Shown: positions 8,115 to 19,157 of the stretch, in pieces
Layout of the letters: each line of letters starts with the position of its first letter
How positions within the stretch are numbered: position 1 is the first letter of the stretch
DNA from: Clostridia bacterium
Lineage (GTDB): Bacteria; Bacillota; Clostridia; Oscillospirales; CAG-272
Direction of reading: 5' to 3'
NCBI GenBank assembly: GCA_017517745.1
Contig: JAFWYJ010000062.1
Span: 54-64,053, forward strand
Length of the DNA stretch: 64,000 nucleotides
Notes under the pieces: generated by a model
What the model saw: only the letters and a program-made list of their open reading frames with translations
What the model was told of the DNA's origin: nothing
Database searches by the model: none
Translations under genes and position numbers: made by a program

Positions 8115-9446
8115 ATGAACGATTTCAACATTCTCTTCACGTTGGCGATCGCGCTGTTTGCGGGTCTCTTTATGTCGCGTATCGTCAAGCCGTTGGGACT
8201 TCCCGCCGTGACGGGCTATCTGCTCGCGGGCATTCTGCTCGGTCCCTACTGTCTCGGCAGACTCGGGGTAACGGGTCTCTTCTTTGATATGAGTCAGGCC
8301 AATCCCGCGATGGCAAGCATGGCAAGCATCGTGCAGGACGCCGCGCTCGGCTTCATCGCCTTTGCCATCGGCACCGAGTTTCGCCTTTCCTCGCTCAAGA
8401 AAACCGGACGTCAAGCAACCGTGGTGGGCATCGTGCAGGCGTTGGTCGCCATGCTTTTGGTGGACGGCGCGCTGATCGGTCTGCATTTTCTCCTCGGTGA
8501 AGATCGTCTGCCTTTGTCTGTTTGCATCACGCTGGGCGCGATCGCAACCGCAACCGCTCCCGCGGCAACTCTGATGGTTATCAAGCAGTACAAAGCAAAG
8601 GGCCCCTTGACCAACATTCTGCTCCCCGTGGTCGCGCTGGACGACGCGGTGGGACTGATCTGCTTCGCCGTTTCGATCGGAATCGCGCAGGCATTGGAGG
8701 GCGGCAGTGTCGGCATCATTTCGGTGCTGATCAACCCGCTTCTTGAGGTCGTGCTTTCACTCGTGCTCGGCACGCTGGTGGGCATCGTCTTCAGCTTTGC
8801 CGAAAACCTGTTCAAATCGAACAGTAAGCGTCTTTGTATCTCGATCACCTTCGTGCTCCTGACCATCGCGCTCTCCAAGCTGACCCACACCTTTGACAAC
8901 GGTGTCAAGATCGCCTTCTCCAATCTGCTCGTCTGCATGATGCTGGGAACGATCTTCTGCAACGTCTGCGACTCGGCAGAGGAATTGATGGAGAGAACCG
9001 ACAAATGGACCATGCCGATCTTCATCCTCTTCTTCGTCATCAGCGGCGCGGAGCTGGAGTTCAGCATTTTCAAGGACGGTATCGTGATTCTCGTGGGCGT
9101 AATGTATATGATCTTCCGCACAATCGGTAAATATTTAGGCGCGCGCTGGAGCGCACAGGCAACCAAATGCGATGCCAACATCGTTCGCTACCTGGGCGTC
9201 ACGCTTCTGCCGCAGGCAGGCGTCTCGATCGGCATGTCGATCACTGCCGCCGCCGTTCTGACGACCGGCGGAACGGTGCGCAACATCGTGCTCTTCGCCG
9301 TCATGATCTACGAGCTGGTCGGCCCGATGCTGACCAAGATCGCCCTGACCAAGGCGGGTGATATTACCCCGAAGCCGACCGAGCCCCATCACCACACCAT
9401 GGCGGAGGTCTTTGCCGACGACCTCGACGACGATCAGACCGAGTAA
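8115..9446 (+). CDS. Cation:proton antiporter (CPA2/Kef-type)
   Basis: About 12 hydrophobic segments; LPAVTGYLLAGILLGP, ATATAPAAT, VALDDA, LLPQAGV motifs. Confidence 0.85.
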   Translation: MNDFNILFTLAIALFAGLFMSRIVKPLGLPAVTGYLLAGILLGPYCLGRLGVTGLFFDMSQANPAMASMASIVQDAALGFIAFAIGTEFRLSSLKKTGRQATVVGIVQALVAMLLVDGALIGLHFLLGEDRLPLSVCITLGAIATATAPAATLMVIKQYKAKGPLTNILLPVVALDDAVGLICFAVSIGIAQALEGGSVGIISVLINPLLEVVLSLVLGTLVGIVFSFAENLFKSNSKRLCISITFVLLTIALSKLTHTFDNGVKIAFSNLLVCMMLGTIFCNVCDSAEELMERTDKWTMPIFILFFVISGAELEFSIFKDGIVILVGVMYMIFRTIGKYLGARWSAQATKCDANIVRYLGVTLLPQAGVSIGMSITAAAVLTTGGTVRNIVLFAVMIYELVGPMLTKIALTKAGDITPKPTEPHHHTMAEVFADDLDDDQTE

Positions 9447-12115: not shown

Positions 12116-13182
12116 AGTCCCACCTCCTCACCGGTCAGTGCGCGCAAGCCGCAGGCGATCACGCGTTCCTTTTCCTCATCCTTCAATTTGGAGGCCATGA
12201 CGCGGCGAATAAATTCCCCCTTGAGCGAAACGTCATGCGCATAATCCTCGGGGCGAATCAGAAGACGGCTCTTGTCCGCGACCTTGGCGAAATAAAAACG
12301 CTCGCCGAGAAGCGCCGCCAAACGCCCCGGATCCTTGGACACCTCAGCGGAGCAAGCTCCGATGAGCTCGACCTTGACAAGATCCGATGCCGCGATCCCC
12401 TCGACTGCCGCGAGAACACGCTCCTCCAGCTCAAACTGAGATGCGAAATCCGTGACGTCGCACGCCACCGTGTGAAGCGTACGACGCGCGATCGGAACGA
12501 AGCGCTGGGAAAGCTTCCCCGCCTCGATCTCAAGCAATACGTAGCCCTTTTGTCCGCATTCGTCAAAGCCGCGTCCCTCGAGGCATCCGCTGTAACAAGC
12601 GGTGCAGCGGTTGTCGACCTTGGCGGTGCGGTATTCGTGCAAATGTCCGAGAGCCAGATAATCGATTCCTTTGTTTTTGAGCTTACCGAAGCGGATCAAA
12701 TCCTCACCCGGCACACTCTTCCCCGCGCCCGCGCGTTCCTGACCGTGCATCAAAACGACGTTGAACGCATCCGGATCAAGCGAAAGTGTCTCAACGTCGG
12801 GACGCTCGCTGCCCGTGATCACCACCTCACCGAAGGTATAGGACTGCCAAGCATCAGAGAACGTATAGAGATTTGCGGGCTTGTCCGATGCACTGCGAAG
12901 CGTGTTGCCGCGGTCATGGTTGCCCGAAAGATAGAAAAAACAGAGCGTCGGATGCGCCGCAATGAGATCCAGTACGTATTTTTCGGTCTTTTTGGTGATG
13001 TGATCGCTGTCAAAAAGATCGCCCGCGATCAGAATCGCGTCCACTCCGCCGTCGGCGGCAAGACGTACCATTTTTGCGAAGGTGGAAAGGATCTCCCCCT
13101 TGCGTTCGCGTGCTTTTTCGGCCGAGAGATTCGCCTCCATGGGAGAATCCAGGTGCAGATCGGCACAATGTATCAGTTTCAT
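12112..13182 (-). CDS. Mre11/SbcD-like metallophosphoesterase (YhaO-like DNA repair exonuclease)
   Basis: IHCADLHLD, IAGDLFD, GNHD, YLALGHLH, YSGCLEGRGFDECG. Confidence 0.9.
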   Translation of the reverse strand: MKLIHCADLHLDSPMEANLSAEKARERKGEILSTFAKMVRLAADGGVDAILIAGDLFDSDHITKKTEKYVLDLIAAHPTLCFFYLSGNHDRGNTLRSASDKPANLYTFSDAWQSYTFGEVVITGSERPDVETLSLDPDAFNVVLMHGQERAGAGKSVPGEDLIRFGKLKNKGIDYLALGHLHEYRTAKVDNRCTACYSGCLEGRGFDECGQKGYVLLEIEAGKLSQRFVPIARRTLHTVACDVTDFASQFELEERVLAAVEGIAASDLVKVELIGACSAEVSKDPGRLAALLGERFYFAKVADKSRLLIRPEDYAHDVSLKGEFIRRVMASKLKDEEKERVIACGLRALTGEEVGL

Positions 13183-13362
13183 CTCTATGCATGCACATCC
13201 TTTCCAAGACGGCAAACAGTCGCCGTCACGTCGTCTGAGAACAGTATATCATATTTTTTGTCAAAAGGCAAGAGCGTTTTGTGAGCAAATTGCAATGACT
13301 TTGTTTTTTTGAAAAAATCCTTTCCGAAAATGAATTTTTTGGAATGGAAATGCAGAAAACTC

Positions 13363-13391
13363 TTGACAAAGAGGGGGCGGTGTGGTATAAT
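13363..13391 (+). promoter_or_regulatory. Sigma-A promoter of tRNA-Gln
   Basis: TTGACA-17bp-TATAAT with extended -10 TG. Confidence 0.8.
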
Positions 13392-13421
13392 TGGAATGTT
13401 AAATTTCAAGCAATGGAATAT

Positions 13422-13496
13422 TGGGGTATAGCCAAGCGGTAAGGCACCAGACTTTGACTCTGGCATTCGTAGGTCCGAATCCTGCTACCCCAGCCA
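13422..13496 (+). tRNA. tRNA-Gln(TTG)
   Basis: TGGGGTATAGCCAAGCGGTAAGGCACCAGACTTTGACTCTGGCATTCGTAGGTCCGAATCCTGCTACCCCAGCCA; cloverleaf with CCA; T-loop reads TCCGAAT. Confidence 0.93.
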
Positions 13497-13711
13497 CGCA
13501 AAGGACACCCAAGGGTGTCCTTTTTGCGTGGCTGGGGTAGCAGGATTCGCCCTATCCCGCGCAAGCGCGGGATGTATGGGAGGAAATTTGCAACGCAAGT
13601 TTCCTCGCAACGGCTTTGCCGTTGCTTCGCATCTTGCCGCCCGAAGATCGGGGAGCTTGCTCACCAGGCGCAGGGCGCGCGAATCTTCGCCGCAGGCGAA
13701 TACCCTGCTAC
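13476..13711. repeat. tRNA-linked palindromic module, copy 1 (hairpin + inverted copy of the tRNA-Gln 3' end)
   Basis: 13476-13510 is the reverse complement of 13513-13549 apart from two extra T; ends with CGAATACCCTGCTAC (13697-13711); homologous to 15785-15964. Confidence 0.85.
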
Positions 13712-13999
13712 TCAAACAGAGATTTTTCCGCTTTTTTTCGACTCTGAAGTTTTTCGAAATTTTGTAGATGCATTTCGGGCATATTCGGGTCTGTAGACAG
13801 ATTCGAACCGGCGAAATACATTTTTTGATATAGATTCCCCACAGAAGCAAAACCGTGGACAGATTTGAACTGACGAAATCTTTACTCACTTCAAATTCGA
13901 GTTTGGTTCAAAAAATGCGTTATTGTTTTCGCAACATTTTTCTGGTATAATATAATCACCGAGCCGGAACGGAATAATTTCTCAAAGGAGAACGCCATT

Positions 14000-15070
14000 A
14001 TGAAATCCATAGGCGATAAGATAAAAGAATATAGGCAGAAGAATCATATGACACAGGAGCAGCTTGCATCGTGTCTGAATGTTACGTTTCAAACTGTTTC
14101 TAAATGGGAAACGGGCGTATCGAGCCCGGATTTGTCGTTGATTATTCCTATCACGAAAATCTTCCATATTTCTGCTGATGAGTTACTCGGTATCAATGAT
14201 GTTGAATCGGATAAGAGATATGACGAACTCAAACAGGCTTACGATCACACTTACAAAACGGAAGATTTTGCAGAACGTCAAAGAATATGTGAAATTGCAG
14301 TATCTGAATATCCCGGAGATATGAAATGGTTGATCAGTCTCGCTTGGGTGGTATCGAACCGTTCCTTTGAATATGAGGACAATGATAGATACATTGCAGA
14401 ACAGGAAAAAGCAATCAAACTGTTCGATGCAGTTGTGAAAAACTGCAAGGATGATATTATCAGAGGTGAAGCCATTCAAGGCATCACACAGCTACTCGGT
14501 TGGAGAGGGCGCAAGGACGAGGCAAGAAAATATGCGGAAATGATTCCCGAACAAACAATGATCTCTCGTGATGCGGTCTTAGAAAATGTTTTGGAAGGTG
14601 ACGAACTGATCCTGTTTAAACAAAAGCGAATCAAGGATCACATTCACGATGTTCTTCGGGATTTGTCGCTAATGCCCACAGAATATACCGATCTCATTCG
14701 TAATATCATTAATACATTGATTCCCGACGGAAATTACATCGAATATAATCATAATTTGTACTATGCCGTACGAAGACAAATCAATCACACCTTAAATCAA
14801 ACGACTAACGCTTCGACGGAACAGATTTATGGTTTGCTGAAAGAAATGAAATCGTATGCAAAAGCGTATGATGAGATTGTTTTTGCAAAGCCCGGAATTT
14901 ACAAATATACGGTTCCGTGGTTCGATCATATTGAAGAAGATACGCGTGATTGGTTTGGAAACGAGGGTGAGCCGATGACACAGGATTTTTATAAATATCT
15001 CGAAGAACTCGAAAAAAGACAGTTTGAAGGACTGCGTGATCCCGAGTTTTTCGCTTTGCTAAAAAAATAA
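14000..15070 (+). CDS. XRE-family HTH regulator with helical/TPR-like C-terminal domain
   Basis: IGDKIKEYR...MTQEQLA...VTFQTVSKWETG..SPD HTH_3 pattern; AT-rich relative to flanks; RBS AAAGGAG. Confidence 0.85.
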   Translation: MKSIGDKIKEYRQKNHMTQEQLASCLNVTFQTVSKWETGVSSPDLSLIIPITKIFHISADELLGINDVESDKRYDELKQAYDHTYKTEDFAERQRICEIAVSEYPGDMKWLISLAWVVSNRSFEYEDNDRYIAEQEKAIKLFDAVVKNCKDDIIRGEAIQGITQLLGWRGRKDEARKYAEMIPEQTMISRDAVLENVLEGDELILFKQKRIKDHIHDVLRDLSLMPTEYTDLIRNIINTLIPDGNYIEYNHNLYYAVRRQINHTLNQTTNASTEQIYGLLKEMKSYAKAYDEIVFAKPGIYKYTVPWFDHIEEDTRDWFGNEGEPMTQDFYKYLEELEKRQFEGLRDPEFFALLKK

Positions 15071-15163
15071 ATACATAGGTTTAGTTTGCAAGCATGGCGT
15101 TGCGCCCCGGAAGATAGCGGTCAAGTGCAACGCCCATCATCGCAAGGGGTTAGTCTACCCTCT
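15068..15163. repeat. Cassette-boundary hairpin site, copy 1
   Basis: TAAATACATAGGTTTAGTTTGCAAGCATGGCGTT...ACGCCCA...GGGTTAGTCTACCCTCT; ends shared with 15635-15721 and 16761-16857. Confidence 0.8.
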
Positions 15164-15310
15164 GCAAAATCTGCGTGCATCTAAATCAGCCATACACGGT
15201 TTTGCATCCAAATCGGACCCCCGGAGGGAGCCTTTTGAAAATCACTCGCGAAACGATTGAAATGTTTACAAAGTGGTGGTATAATGAAAGCAAGGAAGGA
15301 GCTGATCGAT

Positions 15311-15637
15311 ATGAACTTATTCAAAGCAGGAACGACATTACAACTCATTTACTGTTTCGGTTGCCTCGTGGTTGTGATATGTATGCCATTGTACTCTGTA
15401 TTTGATACAACAACCTTTGGAATCATCTGCTTTGGAACAGGATCGATCCTTACTTTCATTTCTACATTTAACCCAATGGGACTGATTGGAACTATCCTCA
15501 ATTTTGTTGCATGCTTCTCCTCTAACTTAAAGAAATCAAAGAAGATTTTAATATGGACGATCATTTCTCCTATTTTGATCGTACTATTTTGGGTATTAGC
15601 TGCATGCTTTTTGGTTCACTATAGCGGCGGTGTTTAA
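15311..15637 (+). CDS. Small membrane protein (about 3 TM), hypothetical
   Basis: 108 aa hydrophobic ORF, RBS AAGGAAGGAG, own TTGAAA-17-TATAAT promoter, AT-rich. Confidence 0.7.
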   Translation: MNLFKAGTTLQLIYCFGCLVVVICMPLYSVFDTTTFGIICFGTGSILTFISTFNPMGLIGTILNFVACFSSNLKKSKKILIWTIISPILIVLFWVLAACFLVHYSGGV

Positions 15638-15721
15638 TTGACATCGTTTCGTTTACAAACATGGCGTTAAAAGTCCGGTAGAACGCACTCCCATACACGC
15701 CCACGGGTTAGTGTACCCTCT
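15635..15721. repeat. Cassette-boundary hairpin site, copy 2
   Basis: TAATTGACATCGTTTCGTTTACAAACATGGCGTTAAAAGTCCG...CTCCCATACACGCCCACGGGTTAGTGTACCCTCT. Confidence 0.8.
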
Positions 15722-15784
15722 GCAAAATCTGCGTGCATCTAAATCGGACACACACGGTTTTGCATCTAAATCGGACACACACCA

Positions 15785-15964
15785 CACGCAAAGGACACCC
15801 AAGGGTGTCCCTTTTGCGTGGCTGGGGTGGACTTGGATTCGCCCTATCCCGCGCGAGCGCGGGATGTAGGTCCGCATTTTGCGAGCAAGCCGATGGGAGC
15901 TCGCTCACGATCAGTGCGAGCAAAAATCTTCAAATTCACTTGCGAATTTGAATACCCTGCTACC
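15785..15964. repeat. tRNA-linked palindromic module, copy 2 (no intact tRNA)
   Basis: CACGCAAAGGACACCCAAGGGTGTCCCTTTTGCGTGGCTGGGGTGG...GGATTCGCCCTATCCCGCGCGAGCGCGGGATGTA...GAATACCCTGCTAC matches 13495-13711 at both ends. Confidence 0.85.
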
Positions 15965-16080
15965 GACAATATTTCACACAACACCCAAACGGTGGACAGA
16001 TTCGAACCGACACACCTATGAGAAAATGTTAAAAAGCGTTAATACAAATTGTATTTAATCATCAGGCATTCTAAAAATTT

Positions 16081-16118
16081 ATCCGCATCAAGGGTGCGTT
16101 CCTTTGATGCGGATTTTT
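16081..16118. terminator. Terminator downstream of the minus-strand membrane gene
   Basis: ATCCGCATCAAGG-loop-CTTTGATGCGGAT flanked by A/T runs. Confidence 0.6.
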
Positions 16119-16137
16119 AACATTTCATTTTGTTGTA

Positions 16138-16668
16138 TTATTTCCACTTTCCCATTGACTCACGGCGTTCTTGTTCTTTTCTGTCTGCTTCGTCCTTAAT
16201 AAGAGCTTTCTTTTTGTCTTGTGCATTTTTAATTATTCGAGGAACTAACACCAATATAAACGTAAACAAGATCCTCAAAATCGTTACGGAAAGTGCCGAA
16301 GAAAGTGCTGTATAAAAGCTCTTTGCAAAAAACGCAAGCGGTATATAAAGTGGAATGGAAGCACAGAAGATGAATGCGGAAAGCGCAAATTCCTTTTTGT
16401 ATTCATCGCTATCTGTATTGGGTTTATCGTCACTTAGCGAACGCAAAAAAGCAATAAATAATTTATTTCTTCCTAACAAGAAGAGGTTGCCCTGTTCCTT
16501 ATTCACAAAGGCAATAATAGCATAAATGGAAGAGCAAATACCAAATACAATTGCCGGGGCAGAATGAAAAGAAATTGCGGCGTTTTCATTTAAGATCACA
16601 GGCAACACACAGGCAAATAAAATTACAATAGACAATATAATTAATATAACATTGCTTTTAATTTTCAT
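16138..16668 (-). CDS. Membrane protein (about 4 TM), hypothetical
   Basis: Hydrophobic AT-rich ORF, RBS GGAGGGTG before MKIKSN; charged C-terminal tail. Confidence 0.7.
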   Translation of the reverse strand: MKIKSNVILIILSIVILFACVLPVILNENAAISFHSAPAIVFGICSSIYAIIAFVNKEQGNLFLLGRNKLFIAFLRSLSDDKPNTDSDEYKKEFALSAFIFCASIPLYIPLAFFAKSFYTALSSALSVTILRILFTFILVLVPRIIKNAQDKKKALIKDEADRKEQERRESMGKWK

Positions 16669-16760
16669 AACTTCACCCTCCCTTTGGATTATTATAACAT
16701 AAAAATATGAATAAATCAATCATTAATAAGCTGTTTTTTCAAGATGATTATGTGAAATAT

Positions 16761-16857
16761 TAATTACATAGGCTTCGTTGCAAGCATGGCGTTAAAAGTC
16801 CGCAAGCCCGCGGAATCTTTTAGCTCCCATACACGCCCACGGGTTAGTCTACCCTCT
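16761..16857. repeat. Cassette-boundary hairpin site, copy 3
   Basis: TAATTACATAGGCTTCGTTGCAAGCATGGCGTTAAAAGTCCG...CTCCCATACACGCCCACGGGTTAGTCTACCCTCT. Confidence 0.8.
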
Positions 16858-16864
16858 CCAAAAA

Positions 16865-16891
16865 CGGACCGACGGGAACGTCGGTCCCTAC
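16865..16891 (-). repeat. GTAG-type REP-like palindrome
   Basis: Minus strand GTAG-GGACCGACG-TTCC-CGTCGGTCC-G. Confidence 0.65.
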
Positions 16892-16928
16892 AAGAAGGAC
16901 TTGCAACCCTCTCCCACCGCAAAAAATC

Positions 16929-16960
16929 GGGCGGAAAACCTCGAAAGAGGTTTTCCGCCC
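16929..16960. terminator. Terminator of the carbohydrate ABC operon
   Basis: GGGCGGAAAACCTC-GAAA-GAGGTTTTCCGCCC with A run on the left and T run on the right. Confidence 0.75.
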
Positions 16961-16986
16961 TTTTTCTTTCGTCTTGGGACGAAAGA

Positions 16987-18174
16987 TTAGTTTGCGATAC
17001 CCGAGTGCTCGATACCCTGTACCAGGAATCTCTGGCAGAAGGCATACAAAACAACCAGGGGCAAAATGATCAGCAAACCGCAAGTATTTCTGATTGCCGA
17101 ATAGTACAGACCTTGACCTGCATATTCGGTTTCCAGCGACTTGGGAATTTCGACCATCTTGTAAAGCATCTTCGTATCAGACGTCGGCATGAGCGTTCCC
17201 GTGTAGAAGGCATCGGTCCACTGCCAGCAGAACGCGAACAGGAACACGGTGATCATCATGGGGATGGATACCGGCAGAATGACCTGGAAGAAGGTGCGCA
17301 ACGGTCCGGAACCGTCCATGTACGCGGATTCCTCAAGCTCATCGGGCACGCCGCGGAAGAACTGACGCAACAAGAAGATGTAGAGTCCGTTCTTGAATGC
17401 AAGTCCCGTCAGAGAGAGCAGGAACATGGGCGCATAGGTCTCGGTCAAGCTGATACCCGCCTGGGTGATCTGCATCTGCACCCTGTACTTCTCCAATTTG
17501 GATCCATCGGGGATGTAAGCGCCCCACTTGATTTCGTCGGGAAGAACGTTCAGTCCTTCGAAGAATTCCTTGACACCCTCACCAAGCTCGGTGATGTTGT
17601 GTCCGAACAGCTCGATTCCGCCGCCCTTGAGCAATCTCACGATACCAAACACGTCAAAGTAGCGGAACTCCAAGAACATGGAGGTACGCAACGTCTGGTG
17701 AGGAACGATCATGGTCAGCATGACCAGCATGAACAGGAATCCTCTTCCTCTGAACTTGAACTTTGCAAAGCCGTATGCAATCAGACAGCAGATGAAGGTC
17801 TGGATGATCGCGCAGCAGAACGAAAGCGTGAAGGTGTTCAGGAGGCACTCCCAATAAGCCAGCTCATCGATCACCGCACGGTAGATATCCAAAGAGAAAT
17901 TCTTCGGGATCAGTCGCACCGTCACGTCGACGAAGTCCTGCATTGCCATGAAGGAACCCGAAATCTTCGTCAAGAACGGGAAGATGATGATGTAGGAAAT
18001 ACCAATCATCAACACCATACGGAAGATCGCAAGCACGACCTTTGCGAGAAAATGGAAGTTCAGAAATTTTGCTTTCAGTCGTTCTTTCAGCGGCGAACGG
18101 TCAAAATCCACACGGATCTTGTTTTTGGTTTCGCGCTTGACGACCGGCTTTTTTTCAATGTTTTGTGCGTTCAT
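16987..18174 (-). CDS. Carbohydrate ABC transporter permease (MalG-like) with extracellular insertion
   Basis: AYGFAKFKFRGR, EAA-like loop ELEESAYMDG, FCWQWTD. Confidence 0.9.
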   Translation of the reverse strand: MNAQNIEKKPVVKRETKNKIRVDFDRSPLKERLKAKFLNFHFLAKVVLAIFRMVLMIGISYIIIFPFLTKISGSFMAMQDFVDVTVRLIPKNFSLDIYRAVIDELAYWECLLNTFTLSFCCAIIQTFICCLIAYGFAKFKFRGRGFLFMLVMLTMIVPHQTLRTSMFLEFRYFDVFGIVRLLKGGGIELFGHNITELGEGVKEFFEGLNVLPDEIKWGAYIPDGSKLEKYRVQMQITQAGISLTETYAPMFLLSLTGLAFKNGLYIFLLRQFFRGVPDELEESAYMDGSGPLRTFFQVILPVSIPMMITVFLFAFCWQWTDAFYTGTLMPTSDTKMLYKMVEIPKSLETEYAGQGLYYSAIRNTCGLLIILPLVVLYAFCQRFLVQGIEHSGIAN

Positions 18175-18191
18175 TTCTTTACCTCCTTTTC

Positions 18192-19157
18192 TCAATCATT
18201 TTTGCGTTGGTAGAACACAAACGCAGAAAGTATGGCTGCGATCAGGGCAACCACCGCAATAACGATGAGGAAGTACACCCATGCCATTGCAGAGCTGATG
18301 ACCTTGTCCTTGTTGTAATAATCGGAGATAAACGACATCACCGCATTGTTGCCGGTGGTGAAGGAGTCGATCACGGTATAAACACCGTTTACCAAAATCA
18401 TCGGGCTGATCATCGGGAAAGTAATCTTCCAGAAGGTCTCCCACGCGGTTGCACCGTCGATCTTACACGATTCGTAAACTGCGGGAGAAATCGACTGCAG
18501 ACCCGACAGGAAGATCAACATTTGTACGCCGGCACGGTTGACAATATTGTAAATATTGTTGATTGCCGAGGTAACGTACTTCACGAGTCCCGTACCGACC
18601 TTCATGTTTGCGAAGAGCTTCTCCATGTCCATGGTGGAAATCAGATCGTTTGCGGTACTCTGTCCACTACCGTCATCAATACCGCCGGTTCCCTCCATGT
18701 AGCTGTTCATGATGTCCTTCGCTGCGATCGACTCCATGATACCGGTCGAAAGAATGACCGGGATGAAGAAGATCGCGCGGAAGGCACCTCTTCCCGCTGC
18801 CTTCTGGTTCAGCATAACTGCCATGAAGAGCGAGAAAATGAGGATTGCGGGAACGTCAAAAGCCAGCTGGCCCAAGCCCGTGACCAAGGTTTCCACGAAG
18901 TCGGGGTCCGTTCCAAGTGCATAACTATAGTTTTCCCAACCGACAAATTCCAATTCATATCCCGCTGCTGCGGTGATCTTGAGCGAGTGAAAACTCAATT
19001 TGATCGATTCATACACCATCGGAAGATAGATGACGATGAATCCGATGATAAACGGAAGAATGAAGAACCATCCTGCACGCGCCTTGCGGCGGTCAAGGGA
19101 GGCTATTTTTCTTCTCTTCGGCTTTTTTGCCGAATCCATTGCTACGTTGTTCGTCAT
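18192..19157 (-). CDS. Carbohydrate ABC transporter permease (MalF-like)
   Basis: FVGWENY, FRAIFFIPVI, LSGLQSI..VYESCKIDGA..WETFWKITFP. Confidence 0.9.
   Translation of the reverse strand: MTNNVAMDSAKKPKRRKIASLDRRKARAGWFFILPFIIGFIVIYLPMVYESIKLSFHSLKITAAAGYELEFVGWENYSYALGTDPDFVETLVTGLGQLAFDVPAILIFSLFMAVMLNQKAAGRGAFRAIFFIPVILSTGIMESIAAKDIMNSYMEGTGGIDDGSGQSTANDLISTMDMEKLFANMKVGTGLVKYVTSAINNIYNIVNRAGVQMLIFLSGLQSISPAVYESCKIDGATAWETFWKITFPMISPMILVNGVYTVIDSFTTGNNAVMSFISDYYNKDKVISSAMAWVYFLIVIAVVALIAAILSAFVFYQRKND

Follow-up and report, generated by a model that had tools for sequence, protein, structure and literature searches.

A tRNA-Gln-anchored array of single accessory genes in a gut Clostridia genome and a family of structured inserts that copy tRNA tails

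The tRNA-Gln(ttg) gene of an uncultured gut Clostridia bacterium (2.17-Mb assembly, 97% complete) is followed by an array of single accessory genes that is real and fast-changing. Module A, which lies directly behind the tRNA, belongs to a family of inserts of about 180-220 bp found behind tRNA genes (Gln, Pro, Ser, Glu, Arg). Each member carries a new terminator, usually an inverted copy of the tail of the tRNA in front of it, one or more hairpins, and a core of about 75 nt that covaries and lies within a copy of the T-arm of that tRNA. This structured, tRNA-tail-copying insert is previously undescribed. The locus is read here as a hypervariable island that grew as DNA was inserted again and again at the tRNA tail, with no integrase in cis, similar to tycheposon and CIME islands, a reading for which we judge the chances to be evenly balanced.

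The array behind tRNA-Gln(ttg)

The window is the whole 64,000-nt stretch of DNA that was analysed. Downstream of tRNA-Gln(ttg) it contains module A and three AT-rich genes, with three B hairpin repeats and module A' interspersed. This layout had been proposed in a preliminary description of the same DNA and was confirmed by ARAGORN and a repeat search, and the proposed AT-richness of the genes was confirmed by a GC content of 0.31-0.44 across 13800-16800 compared to 0.50-0.62 in the flanks. The features are as follows:

13363-13391, plus: promoter-like site of tRNA-Gln (12/12 consensus positions, TG extension)
13422-13496, plus: tRNA-Gln(ttg), CCA encoded, anchor of the array (ARAGORN; Rfam tRNA 63.8 bits)
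13497-13528, plus: terminator hairpin, centre of a long palindrome, inside inverted repeat I2; 98% identical copy in A'
13529-13549, plus: rcX, exact reverse complement of the last 21 nt of tRNA-Gln (inverted-repeat search)
13554-13626, plus: three spacer hairpins of module A (MFE fold), the first common to A' (D6)
13621-13711, plus: structured core in a copy of the tRNA-Gln T-arm (R1 match, 81.1 bits), ending with the T-stem 3' strand and 3 nt of acceptor
13784-13816, minus: M1, diverged tRNA-Gln-like 3' half (exact T-loop-type 12-mer at 13798-13809, minus)
13846-13876, minus: M2, second, more diverged T-arm-like copy (repeat family D3; 2-mismatch match at 13860-13871, minus)
13928-13956, plus: promoter-like site of the XRE gene (10/12 consensus positions)
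14000-15070, plus: HTH (XRE) regulator, 356 aa (HTH_3 domain, E 1.4e-12)
15072-15218, plus: B1, imperfect hairpin with 72-nt tail (repeat search, BLAST)
15257-15285, plus: promoter-like site (11/12) in a shared promoter module before mem1
15311-15637, plus: mem1, small hydrophobic protein, 108 aa, no family found
15639-15776, plus: B2 (repeat search)
15785-15964, plus: module A' (R1 match 15866-15963, 91.5 bits; repeats D4, D6, D11, D13)
15985-16011, minus: M3, T-arm-like copy (exact 12-mer at 15997-16008, minus; D3)
16081-16114, minus: hairpin behind mem2 (inverted repeat I12; terminator-like site 16084-16098)
16138-16668, minus: mem2, membrane protein, 176 aa, no family above cut-off
16691-16719, minus: promoter-like site of mem2 (10/12 with TG)
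16764-16863, plus: B3, hairpin part only, without tail (repeat search, BLAST)
16866-16887, minus: terminator-like hairpin (nine pairs, then a T run on the minus strand)
16929-16960, no strand assigned: bidirectional terminator of the ABC permease operon, where the variable region ends
16987-18195, minus: permease (BPD_transp_1 profile match)

The XRE gene has relatives at 39 loci in Clostridia MAGs, and in 28 of these its upstream region accompanies the gene; a TPR was detected in the relatives only. The promoter module of mem1 also stands before other genes in genomes G023, G036, G007 and G001. A promoter had been ascribed to at least the second gene, which does have a promoter-like site, but this was too narrow, as sigma-70-like sites precede all three genes. 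The hairpin at 16866-16887, earlier termed a 'GTAG REP', scored as a terminator-like hairpin on the minus strand.

The B repeats were matched in their 5' parts (15079-15101, 15646-15668, 16771-16793) and 3' parts (15130-15169, 15688-15727, 16824-16863), and the 72-nt tail is common to B1 and B2 with 93% identity. The search of the genome for B sites proposed earlier was carried out by BLAST of B1 against the whole assembly and returned only three copies (E 9e-80, 1e-24 and 3e-4), all of them in this locus. Copies of B1 with 88-93% identity occur in seven congeners, and 23 of 61 congeners harbor one to four B per genome, often clustered. Inspected by eye, both covarying versions of the hairpin read GTT..(stem)..AAC. 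Each gene had been described as bounded on its right by a homologous hairpin; however, the inverted mem2 has B3 at its promoter side, indicating that B marks the boundary of a unit and not the 3' end of a gene.

The three M motifs are inverted relative to the tRNA and their likeness to tRNA-Gln is modest, with agreement at 19 of 24 aligned positions in M1. The flank holding M1 occurs inverted in congener G018, where it runs into a true 35-nt 3' fragment of tRNA-Gln. Across the window the T-loop pattern (up to two mismatches) was not enriched (10 found, 17.6 expected). The preliminary inventory of A and B sites was correct, but module A had not been recognised as an insertion that duplicates the tRNA tail, and the same kind of module behind other tRNAs and the diverged inverted tail copies that bound the units had been missed.

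Structured modules at tRNA tails

Modules A and A' share paired repeats (13495-13538 and 15785-15828, 98%; 13543-13576 and 15835-15868, 97%; 13698-13711 and 15950-15963, 100%), and both are terminated by direct copies of the tRNA tail. A' is composed of the terminator copy, the reverse-complemented acceptor tail with a variable linker, a hairpin, the T-stem 5' strand, which is that of tRNA-Gln, a core of subtype b, and the T-stem 3' strand plus 3 nt. At tRNA-Gln the tail, the terminator and the inverted tail form a palindrome with arms at 13476-13502 and 13523-13549 that are 100% complementary over 27 nt, while at other tRNAs such palindromes are perfect over 13-15 nt. Of 13 tail copies behind a core, 12 stop 0-6 nt past the T-stem, so that no single precise position can be assigned to their end.

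One explanation would be that a structured tRNA-like RNA is encoded by the module and expressed by read-through from the tRNA, the gene array being an unrelated neighbourhood. Such an RNA would comprise acceptor 5' strand, hairpin, T-arm with expanded loop, acceptor 3' strand, CCA and terminator. In line with this, the inverted tail is identical, within the genus, to the 5' acceptor strand of the tRNA itself with the complement of NCCA in front, and a second terminator comes after the CCA with which complete module copies end. The MFE fold of 13523-13715 reached -98.3 kcal/mol (z = -4.8, plus strand), one U-G pair in a spacer hairpin is compatible with the plus strand only, and the core loops are conserved while the stems covary. 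However, folding of the minus strand is nearly as favourable (z = -4.2), the acceptor 3' strand is lacking from most copies beyond the 0-6 nt mentioned above, and the modules lie behind a terminator without a promoter-like site of their own. A search of 12500-17500 against Rfam 15 (both strands, E <= 1) gave the tRNA as the sole real match; four other matches overlapping the tRNA palindrome were far below gathering scores. In 24 aligned subtype-a rows the helices P1, P1b, P2 and P3 each show several pair types and are Watson-Crick in 88/92, 108/115, 104/120 and 118/120 cells, respectively. G-T occupies only 3 and A-C 4 of about 447 cells in these core helices, and in the tRNA-derived T-stem of the same rows G-T fills 15 of 115 cells and A-C none. 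Judged from this alignment, the near-strict Watson-Crick pairing fits a DNA hairpin better than an RNA, and we regard an RNA gene as very unlikely.

Within the genus, 46 of 61 genomes gave matches to the core model R1; a single genome may contain as many as 13 copies, and the copies are often in tandem. Outside the genus R1 matched in 3 of 120 other genomes of the order, as sporadic single copies in three other families, and it was not found in five other genera of the same family. The three modules outside the genus lack the inverted tail, which is therefore not essential. Thirty of 46 aligned R1 matches were evaluable: 24 have a tRNA on the same strand within 1000 nt upstream, and the remaining six are internal copies in arrays. 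The first module begins 75-125 nt behind its tRNA. Many core matches sit at contig ends.

In the genome of the window, 4 of 35 tRNAs (Ser-gga, Gln-ttg, Gln-ctg and Pro-cgg) are followed by the same module architecture, each with flanks matching its own tRNA, and behind five more stands another type of module, about 150 nt long, whose end is likewise a copy of the T-arm and acceptor of the tRNA concerned. Dispersed repeats of the REP/BIME type were rejected, given that all B copies are at one locus and that four of the five strong core copies in this genome lie directly behind tRNAs. At tRNA-Pro(cgg), genomes G010 and G013 have an empty site that runs directly into the sequence found after the 16-nt tail copy of the module, which identifies this module as an insertion or deletion of 183 bp with the tRNA tail as direct repeats at its flanks. 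By comparison, tRNA-Pro(ggg) of the genome of the window harbors a classical integrated element with a clean 30-nt direct repeat and neither inverted copy nor core, showing that the modules are not ordinary att scars. Core and module sites had no match in phage or plasmid collections, and no autonomous carrier element was found.

Variation among relatives and the search for a recombinase

The interval from tRNA-Gln to the permease measures 3.5 kb here, and 5.9, 10.4 and 14.1 kb with different genes in G011, G015 and G023. In G023, two A'-type modules are accompanied by five B sites, and small ORFs with a GC content of about 35% lie on the left of each of these sites. In G018 an A-type terminator follows the XRE gene and B immediately, and the unit of mem1 and B2 is missing. 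The comparison of this interval among congeners, which had been suggested as a check, thus gave variable size and content with differences falling at repeats. Three DNA runs yielded metagenome contigs in which 13808-13818 is joined to 15248-15257, corresponding to an M-plus-promoter unit without the block of XRE gene and B1; the short sides of these joints are 20-36 nt at 90% likeness and may stem from other organisms. In one metagenome contig the mem1 ORF is replaced between its promoter and B2. The excised circles or junctions that had been anticipated were not seen in the metagenome reads examined.

It is unlikely, in our view, that nothing at this locus is mobile any longer and that it represents an old, decaying integration hotspot. 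The repeats would then be terminators and leftovers, variation would arise by homologous recombination, deletion between repeats and horizontal replacement, and the similarity of the cores would reflect gene conversion. Several observations agree with this: the mem1 and B2 difference in G018 is bounded by the 72-nt direct repeat, whose 93% identity suffices for homologous recombination; palindrome arms are partly deleted in tandem modules of G011 and G015; in G023 the tRNA has changed, but its module still has the common tRNA-Gln tail; the XRE gene occurs in many loci without B or tRNA; and none of the four tyrosine recombinases (PF00589) and the one serine recombinase of the genome of the window is near a module. 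On the other hand, the module A core is 93-95% identical to those behind tRNA-Pro and tRNA-Ser of the same genome, whereas the core at the same tRNA-Gln(ttg) belongs to other subtypes in other species. Together with the copy number in tandem runs and the patchy distribution, this likeness suggests recent spread rather than slow decay.

The claim that no integrase is present in cis was upheld for contig C8 and for the intervals of three relatives, none of which contained a recombinase. On contig C8 no match to PF00589, PF01797, PF00078 or PF07282 was obtained, and none over cut-off to PF00239 or PF01548. Integrase and transposase families were absent from 50 scanned ORF products of the window and seven related loci, a selection from about 110 listed. 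In five congeners none of 46 core matches was within 10 kb of any of 24 PF00589 matches, the nearest being 66 kb away. The suggested HUH nuclease found no counterpart, since PF01797 (Y1 HUH transposase) had no match in the 97%-complete genome; the TnpB TNB domain was likewise absent, and an IS200/IS605-derived or RAYT-REP system was rejected.

A host enzyme acting on folded DNA could account for such a setting. The CTX phage and IMEX carry no integrase of their own and target dif, and two inverted target-like copies around a short spacer could fold into a target mimic. The Xer-dependent integration of their folded single-stranded DNA is described in PMC3442271. By analogy, a tyrosine recombinase of the host (Xer-type or unknown) would recombine B hairpins and palindromes, folded as single strands, with the double-stranded tRNA tail, and single genes would be captured one by one in hairpin-site cassettes, integron-like in the functional sense. 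We consider this distinctly unlikely, although several features are in line with it: the B hairpins are imperfect, show compensatory change between two stem versions and stand at unit boundaries whatever the gene orientation; the core helices are strictly Watson-Crick, as expected of DNA hairpins; the palindromes at the tRNA tails are perfect; and integration of a single strand predicts the observed order of tail, loop, inverted tail, body, T-stem 5' copy and old tail, without an integrase encoded by the element. Moreover, the ten modules of G011 stand beside only three tyrosine recombinases in that genome, of which two fall into the XerC/XerD score class. Against this, the target here is a tRNA and not dif, no dif-like site was recognised, a crude scan for an XerD arm of the dif type being negative, no phage genes are present, and the inverted tail is missing outside the genus. 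The lack of an integron integrase and of the attC core order in B, the promoters of the cassettes and the lack of circles or excision junctions among the metagenome reads examined also argue against it.

Known systems and possible growth of the island

Integron cassettes are mostly promoterless and lie in one orientation, attC sites have inverted core sites (RYYYAAC ... GTTRRRY) around an imperfect hairpin, and CALIN arrays need no IntI in cis. The present array resembles them in its mostly single genes separated by imperfect hairpin sites, in content varying among relatives and, as in CALIN, in the lack of an integrase in cis; it differs in being tRNA-anchored and interspersed with tRNA-tail copies. 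The analogy with this class, drawn in the preliminary description, does not hold as a claim of membership: on the integron-integrase models the best scores were 83.9 bits (TIGR02249, cut-off 265) and 51.8 (NF011946, cut-off 435), the core order of B, judged by eye, is reversed (GTT...AAC versus AAC...GTT), the genes have promoter-like sites and mem2 is inverted.

CIMEs of streptococci, known from ICE/IME accretion-mobilization, are integrase-less, att-flanked units in tandem at one site that depend on a recombinase in trans. The units described here are likewise integrase-less and in tandem at one integration site, and would need such a recombinase. However, the direct att repeats on either side of a CIME belong to a known ICE family with an identifiable integrase, whereas no cognate element is known here and long palindromes and a structured core are part of the sites. 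Viewed as an integrative island, the locus has a tRNA at one boundary and variable content, and partial tRNA 3' copies bound the insert (A, A' and tRNA-Pro), yet M1-M3 are inverted and diverged, and a cognate integrase was not found in the window, among the 50 ORFs or within 10 kb of the 46 core matches in five genomes.

Tycheposon islands of Prochlorococcus are tRNA-anchored, grow by successive integrations, and have their own tyrosine recombinase and often replication genes (10.1101/2020.12.28.424599). Both kinds of island start at a tRNA gene, newcomers push older arrivals further in, partial tRNA copies are scattered, accessory cargo differs between close relatives and many genes are no longer within a functional element. 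In contrast to tycheposons, no recombinase was found in or near any array examined here, the single-gene units have conserved hairpin and promoter arms, and some tRNA copies are inverted; the passages of that account considered here contain no counterpart of the gene-less T-arm-core modules.

The favoured insertion model regards the locus as the tRNA-proximal part of a genus-wide hypervariable island. DNA would have been inserted repeatedly into the 3' end of tRNA-Gln (T-arm and acceptor strand); each insertion would restore the tRNA, supply a new terminator and leave a partial tail copy further downstream, so that older material is pushed away from the tRNA. This material would be of two kinds, gene-less miniature modules (A and A') and single-gene units with their own promoter, an M copy on one side and a B hairpin with tail on the other. 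The recombinase, not in the locus, would act in trans or be long gone. We infer site-specific recombination, the order of events, units that move as units and the enzyme responsible; a trans-acting enzyme is hypothetical. Several points run against the model: no recombinase could be tied to the system, the tail copies behind the cores do not end at one position, simple tandem integration leaves direct repeats, whereas the M copies are inverted, and an element carrying the tail of each target tRNA cannot easily move between tRNAs, which the model does not explain.

A bolder proposal, which is rather unlikely, is that the modules are a new class of small gene-less mobile elements confined to tRNA tails, each a hairpin-structured unit of about 75 nt within a T-arm copy of the host tRNA. 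They would regenerate the tRNA, bring a terminator and re-template their flanks, via the palindrome, from any tRNA that they enter. A host enzyme working on folded single strands would mobilise them, and the sites left behind would be docking points for B-bounded single-gene capture. If true, this would be an integron-like gene-capture system in Clostridia that uses tRNA tails rather than attI/attC.

Little is known about how the uncultured gut and rumen Clostridia of this group gain genes. The locus is a recurrent, tRNA-anchored place of turnover for single accessory genes without a visible recombinase, and its modules represent a small element widespread in the genus whose flanks always match the adjacent tRNA. 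The modules break assemblies and would confuse tRNA-based island finders. If the element is mobile, it poses the puzzle of how an insert copies its target in both orientations, and it could point to host-enzyme-driven gene capture in a phylum where integrons are rare.

Layout of the array and its variation among relatives

The array behind tRNA-Gln(ttg) is a real feature, and it is variable. A repeat search recovered the coordinates and repeats that the preliminary description had assigned to it, and the GC content of its genes was 0.31-0.44 compared to 0.50-0.62 outside.

Features of the array behind tRNA-Gln(ttg)
13422-13496: tRNA-Gln(ttg), with a perfect promoter-like site upstream
13497-13711: gene-less module A, downstream of tRNA-Gln
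Between module A and the HTH gene: M1 and M2, T-arm-like motifs, minus strand
14000-15070: HTH regulator (XRE) gene, between M2 and B1
Between the HTH regulator gene and mem1: hairpin repeat B1
15311-15637: small membrane gene (mem1), followed by B2
Between mem1 and module A': hairpin repeat B2
15785-15964: gene-less module A', followed by M3
Between module A' and mem2: M3, T-arm-like motif, minus strand
16138-16668: inverted membrane gene (mem2), followed by B3
Distal end, in this order: hairpin repeat B3, a terminator-like hairpin and the bidirectional terminator of the ABC permease operon

The array is located on contig C8 of an assembly (referred to as the own genome) of 2.17 Mb in 62 contigs, which is 97% complete. 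Related records are MAGs of uncultured Clostridia, Eubacteriales and Oscillospiraceae, and the metagenome runs containing the stretch (22 rows from 11 studies) were assigned to animal gut, faeces and bovine sources. Neither Pfam nor NCBIfam yielded a match above cut-off for mem1 or mem2, and as to their cargo function the protein atlas gave unnamed clusters only. Phage and plasmid collections searched with 13497-16990 in distant mode gave no match. The idea that CCA and the original terminator persist behind B3 was rejected, as the score of the 16866-16887 hairpin is that of a terminator on the minus strand, and unrelated core genes make up the distal ends in relatives.

Comparison of the tRNA-Gln to permease gene interval across relatives, as proposed in the preliminary description, revealed differences in both size and genes. 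The distance amounts to 3.5 kb in the window and to 5.9, 10.4 and 14.1 kb in the congeners G011, G015 and G023, respectively. The interval of G011 harbors a MatE transporter, a methyltransferase and a cohesin-domain protein, and that of G015 an XRE-TPR regulator with an ABC exporter, a sigma-70-family gene with a neighbouring ORF, an ArsR regulator, an SPFH protein and others. The XRE-TPR gene and the exporter of G015 suggest a regulator-exporter pair. This exporter, with fused membrane and ATPase domains, lies between the regulator and a B site (locus L047, G015:C4, 2289-5176). In G023, a series of small ORFs of ~35% GC, including a GNAT and an RHS-repeat fragment, is accompanied by two A'-type modules and by five B sites, each of which has an ORF or a pair of ORFs on its left. 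The XRE gene of G018 and its B site abut an A-type terminator directly, and therefore the mem1|B2 unit is absent there. In G001, tRNA-Gln lies 170 bp from the permease gene and is directed away from it, opposite to that of the window. At two loci, L054 (G001:C37, 4030-4404) and L051 (G036:C16, 3610-3850), a series of short hairpins, each preceded by GAAAT(C), stands behind tRNA-Gln instead of an A module.

The XRE gene with its own upstream region was found at 39 related loci, where its neighbours are tRNA-Gln in five, other tRNAs in three (leaving out a distant tRNA-Thr in locus L146) and no tRNA in most. It is therefore a widespread accessory gene and not a site marker.

Gene-less modules behind tRNAs

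Module A is an insert that reproduces the tail of its tRNA. It starts with a terminator hairpin after the CCA of the tRNA, followed by the 3'-terminal 21 nt of the tRNA in exact reverse complement (the inverted tail); tail, terminator and inverted tail form perfect 27-nt arms. The remainder comprises three hairpins, a core of ~75 nt, and the T-stem 3' strand with 3 nt of the acceptor strand. The same architecture is present in the own genome behind tRNA-Ser(gga), tRNA-Gln(ctg) and tRNA-Pro(cgg). At each site three parts fit the site's own tRNA, namely the inverted tail, the 5' strand of the T-stem plus four bases from the start of the loop, and the 3' strand of the T-stem, and the cores of the Gln, Pro and Ser copies share 93-95% identity. 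The unusual T-loop TCCG of tRNA-Gln(ttg) (TTCG in other tRNAs) is copied in A' and in relatives. In the window this loop reads TCCGAAT, with C at the usual U55 position (13469-13485), as it does in tRNA-Tyr(gta) of the own genome. That A' bears the tail of a foreign tRNA-Gln was considered and rejected: its 23-nt inverted tail occurred in none of 77 other genus genomes at up to one mismatch, and a variable linker of 1-5 nt occupies that place in relatives.

A second kind of module, ~150 nt long, was found in the own genome behind five tRNAs, Leu-tag, Lys-ttt, Val-cac, Met-cat and Leu-gag (C32:8907-9200, C53:56616-56870, C55:14880-15138, C62:5620-5885 and C62:60590-60836). These modules end in a copy of the T-arm and acceptor of their own tRNA, with one extra T in the copied T-loop for Val, Met and Lys (TTCTGA versus TTCGA in the tRNA). 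A tail module of either kind is carried by 9 of the 35 tRNAs of the own genome.

The comparison at tRNA-Pro(cgg) is the decisive one. There, the tRNA of G010 and G013 is immediately succeeded by the sequence located after the module's complete 16-nt tail copy in the own genome; thus, the 183-bp module is an insertion (or its absence a precise deletion). It has a direct repeat of the tRNA tail on both flanks and supplied its own terminator. The terminator and flank that the own genome, G010 and G013 share behind tRNA-Pro(cgg) were also seen behind a different gene, tRNA-Pro(tgg), at L109 (G011:C3) and L111 (G070:C26). Among the papers listed by full-text literature searches, none described tRNA-tail palindromic modules or a T-loop-embedded core.

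Distribution and structure of the core

A covariance model of the core (R1), trained on nine copies, gave five strong matches in the own genome and matched 46 of 61 genus genomes, with up to 13 matches per genome. Within the genus, copies often occur in tandem at ~170-190 nt spacing and often at contig ends. Outside it, three of 120 sampled genomes of the order were matched, and no match was obtained in five other genera of the same family. Upstream context was evaluated for 30 of 46 aligned matches. A same-strand tRNA is located within 1000 nt upstream of 24 of them (Gln-ttg 10, Gln-ctg 6, Glu-ctc 3, Pro-cgg 2, and Ser, Arg and Cys 1 each), and the other six are internal array copies, A' included. 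The three copies outside the genus stand behind tRNA-Gln(ctg) or tRNA-Pro(cgg) and lack the inverted tail; at their ends they have a complete tail, CCA included, and a second terminator. At tRNA-Gln(ttg), the core subtype varies between species. Two weak matches were noted in the own genome, C15:49849-49938 (E 3e-4) and C33:50374-50445 (E 0.03), the latter near a contig end among short repeats; both lie away from any tRNA that ARAGORN predicted in the surrounding stretch.

The core comprises four helices, in which compensatory changes are numerous, and its loops are invariant, e.g. the hexaloop GCTYGC. Among 24 subtype-a rows, 88 of 92, 108 of 115, 104 of 120 and 118 of 120 cells of the four helices are Watson-Crick pairs, and only three G-T and four A-C cells occur; in the closing T-stem, which derives from the tRNA, G-T accounts for 15 of 115 cells and A-C for none. 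Both strands of the module fold about equally well, and an Rfam search returned no family matching the core. In our tentative reading, the core helices are constrained as DNA hairpins rather than as RNA. Contigs of X15, the single RNA run covered, span the tRNA, 13787-13877, part of the XRE ORF, B1, the B2 tail and part of mem2; the A core lies on none of them, although such contigs cannot show absence, strand or level.

B sites, cargo units and proposed growth of the array

Searching the whole own assembly with B1 retrieved B1, B2 and B3 only, so that repeats strewn beside housekeeping genes, which the preliminary description had named as speaking against cassettes, were not found for B. The array is not an ordinary repeat landscape. 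B-like sites (E <= 1e-6) are present in 23 of 61 genus genomes, where one to four of them occur, frequently as clusters spanning 1-2 kb. A dif/Xer idea, suggested by the resemblance of the B 5' end to a XerD arm, was dropped; scanning the genome with a crude regular expression gave five unconvincing sites, none of them a dif candidate. B as a degenerate tRNA-like gene, a likeness judged by eye, was discarded, having no ARAGORN or Rfam support and no covariation in the putative acceptor pairing.

At several places the B tail abuts tRNA-tail material: in the window, CCA, a terminator copy and the inverted tail directly follow the B2 tail, and in G015 and G023 a copy of the genome's own tRNA-Gln terminator follows a B tail. 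On the minus strand, each unit therefore has the apparent order B, gene, promoter module and tRNA-tail-like copy. The last part corresponds to the M motifs, T-arm-like sequences on the minus strand with exact 12-mers at 13798-13809 and 15997-16008. In G018, the M1-bearing flank of the window is also present in inverted form and there runs into a true 35-nt tRNA-Gln 3' fragment; ARAGORN detected no whole tRNA at that locus. The conserved promoter module (15257-15285 and flanks) stands directly after an M motif and upstream of different genes in G023, G036, G007 and G001. A palindromic repeat rich in CTTTTCACT and complementary AGTGAA units was observed behind tRNA terminators or B tails in several genomes (L112, 3540-3700; L049, 6030-6180; own C55, downstream of tRNA-Val(cac)).

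This direct joint of M motif and promoter module recurs in contigs from three metagenomes, with 13808-13818 joined straight to 15248-15257, and in the window the XRE|B1 block stands between the two halves of that joint, with GCGAAA on each side. The joints, whose sides are short and which may stem from relatives, show that such a junction exists as a common form and are not evidence of excision here. A back-joint from 16790 to 15106 (run X8, depth 5) was considered as a circle junction and rejected, as it reads as a mixed-arm B site from another locus.

The own genome encodes four tyrosine recombinases, one XerC-like (C42), one XerD-like (C25) and two on C61 inside a classical element at tRNA-Pro(ggg), as well as one large serine recombinase (C53). 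No Y1 transposase, reverse transcriptase or TnpB was found in it, nor an IS110 match above cut-off, and C8 carries none of its recombinases. In the classical element (C61:5800-9260) the tRNA is adjoined by the recombinase genes (459 and 430 aa), and its tail recurs as a perfect 30-nt direct repeat at the far end (C6:~8816-8834). The preliminary description had proposed a search for recombinase genes beside other copies; in five congeners, the 46 core matches and the 24 tyrosine recombinase genes were nowhere less than 10 kb apart. Its designation of the array as integron-like was not supported.

In the best-supported picture, whose mechanism we hold at about even odds, a tRNA-anchored island would grow by insertion at the tRNA tail, and its gene-less modules and single-gene units would have lost their own recombinase or never carried one. 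CIMEs, which are integrase-less, follow the same logic. For tRNA islands with scattered partial tRNAs, the same growth logic is described in bioRxiv 10.1101/2020.12.28.424599. New here is the module itself, in which an inverted and a direct repeat, both derived from the target, surround a structured core in a T-arm copy, and which occurs behind several different tRNAs. Also new are the cargo units, in that each has the size of one gene and carries conserved hairpin and promoter arms. Growth at the tRNA tail does not explain how the flanks fit each new tRNA, the inverted M copies or the moving agent. The palindromes and the order of parts would both follow from a hypothetical mechanism in which a host recombinase acts on single-strand hairpins; passive decay with gene conversion is possible. 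The most worthwhile part to follow is the family of tRNA-tail modules.
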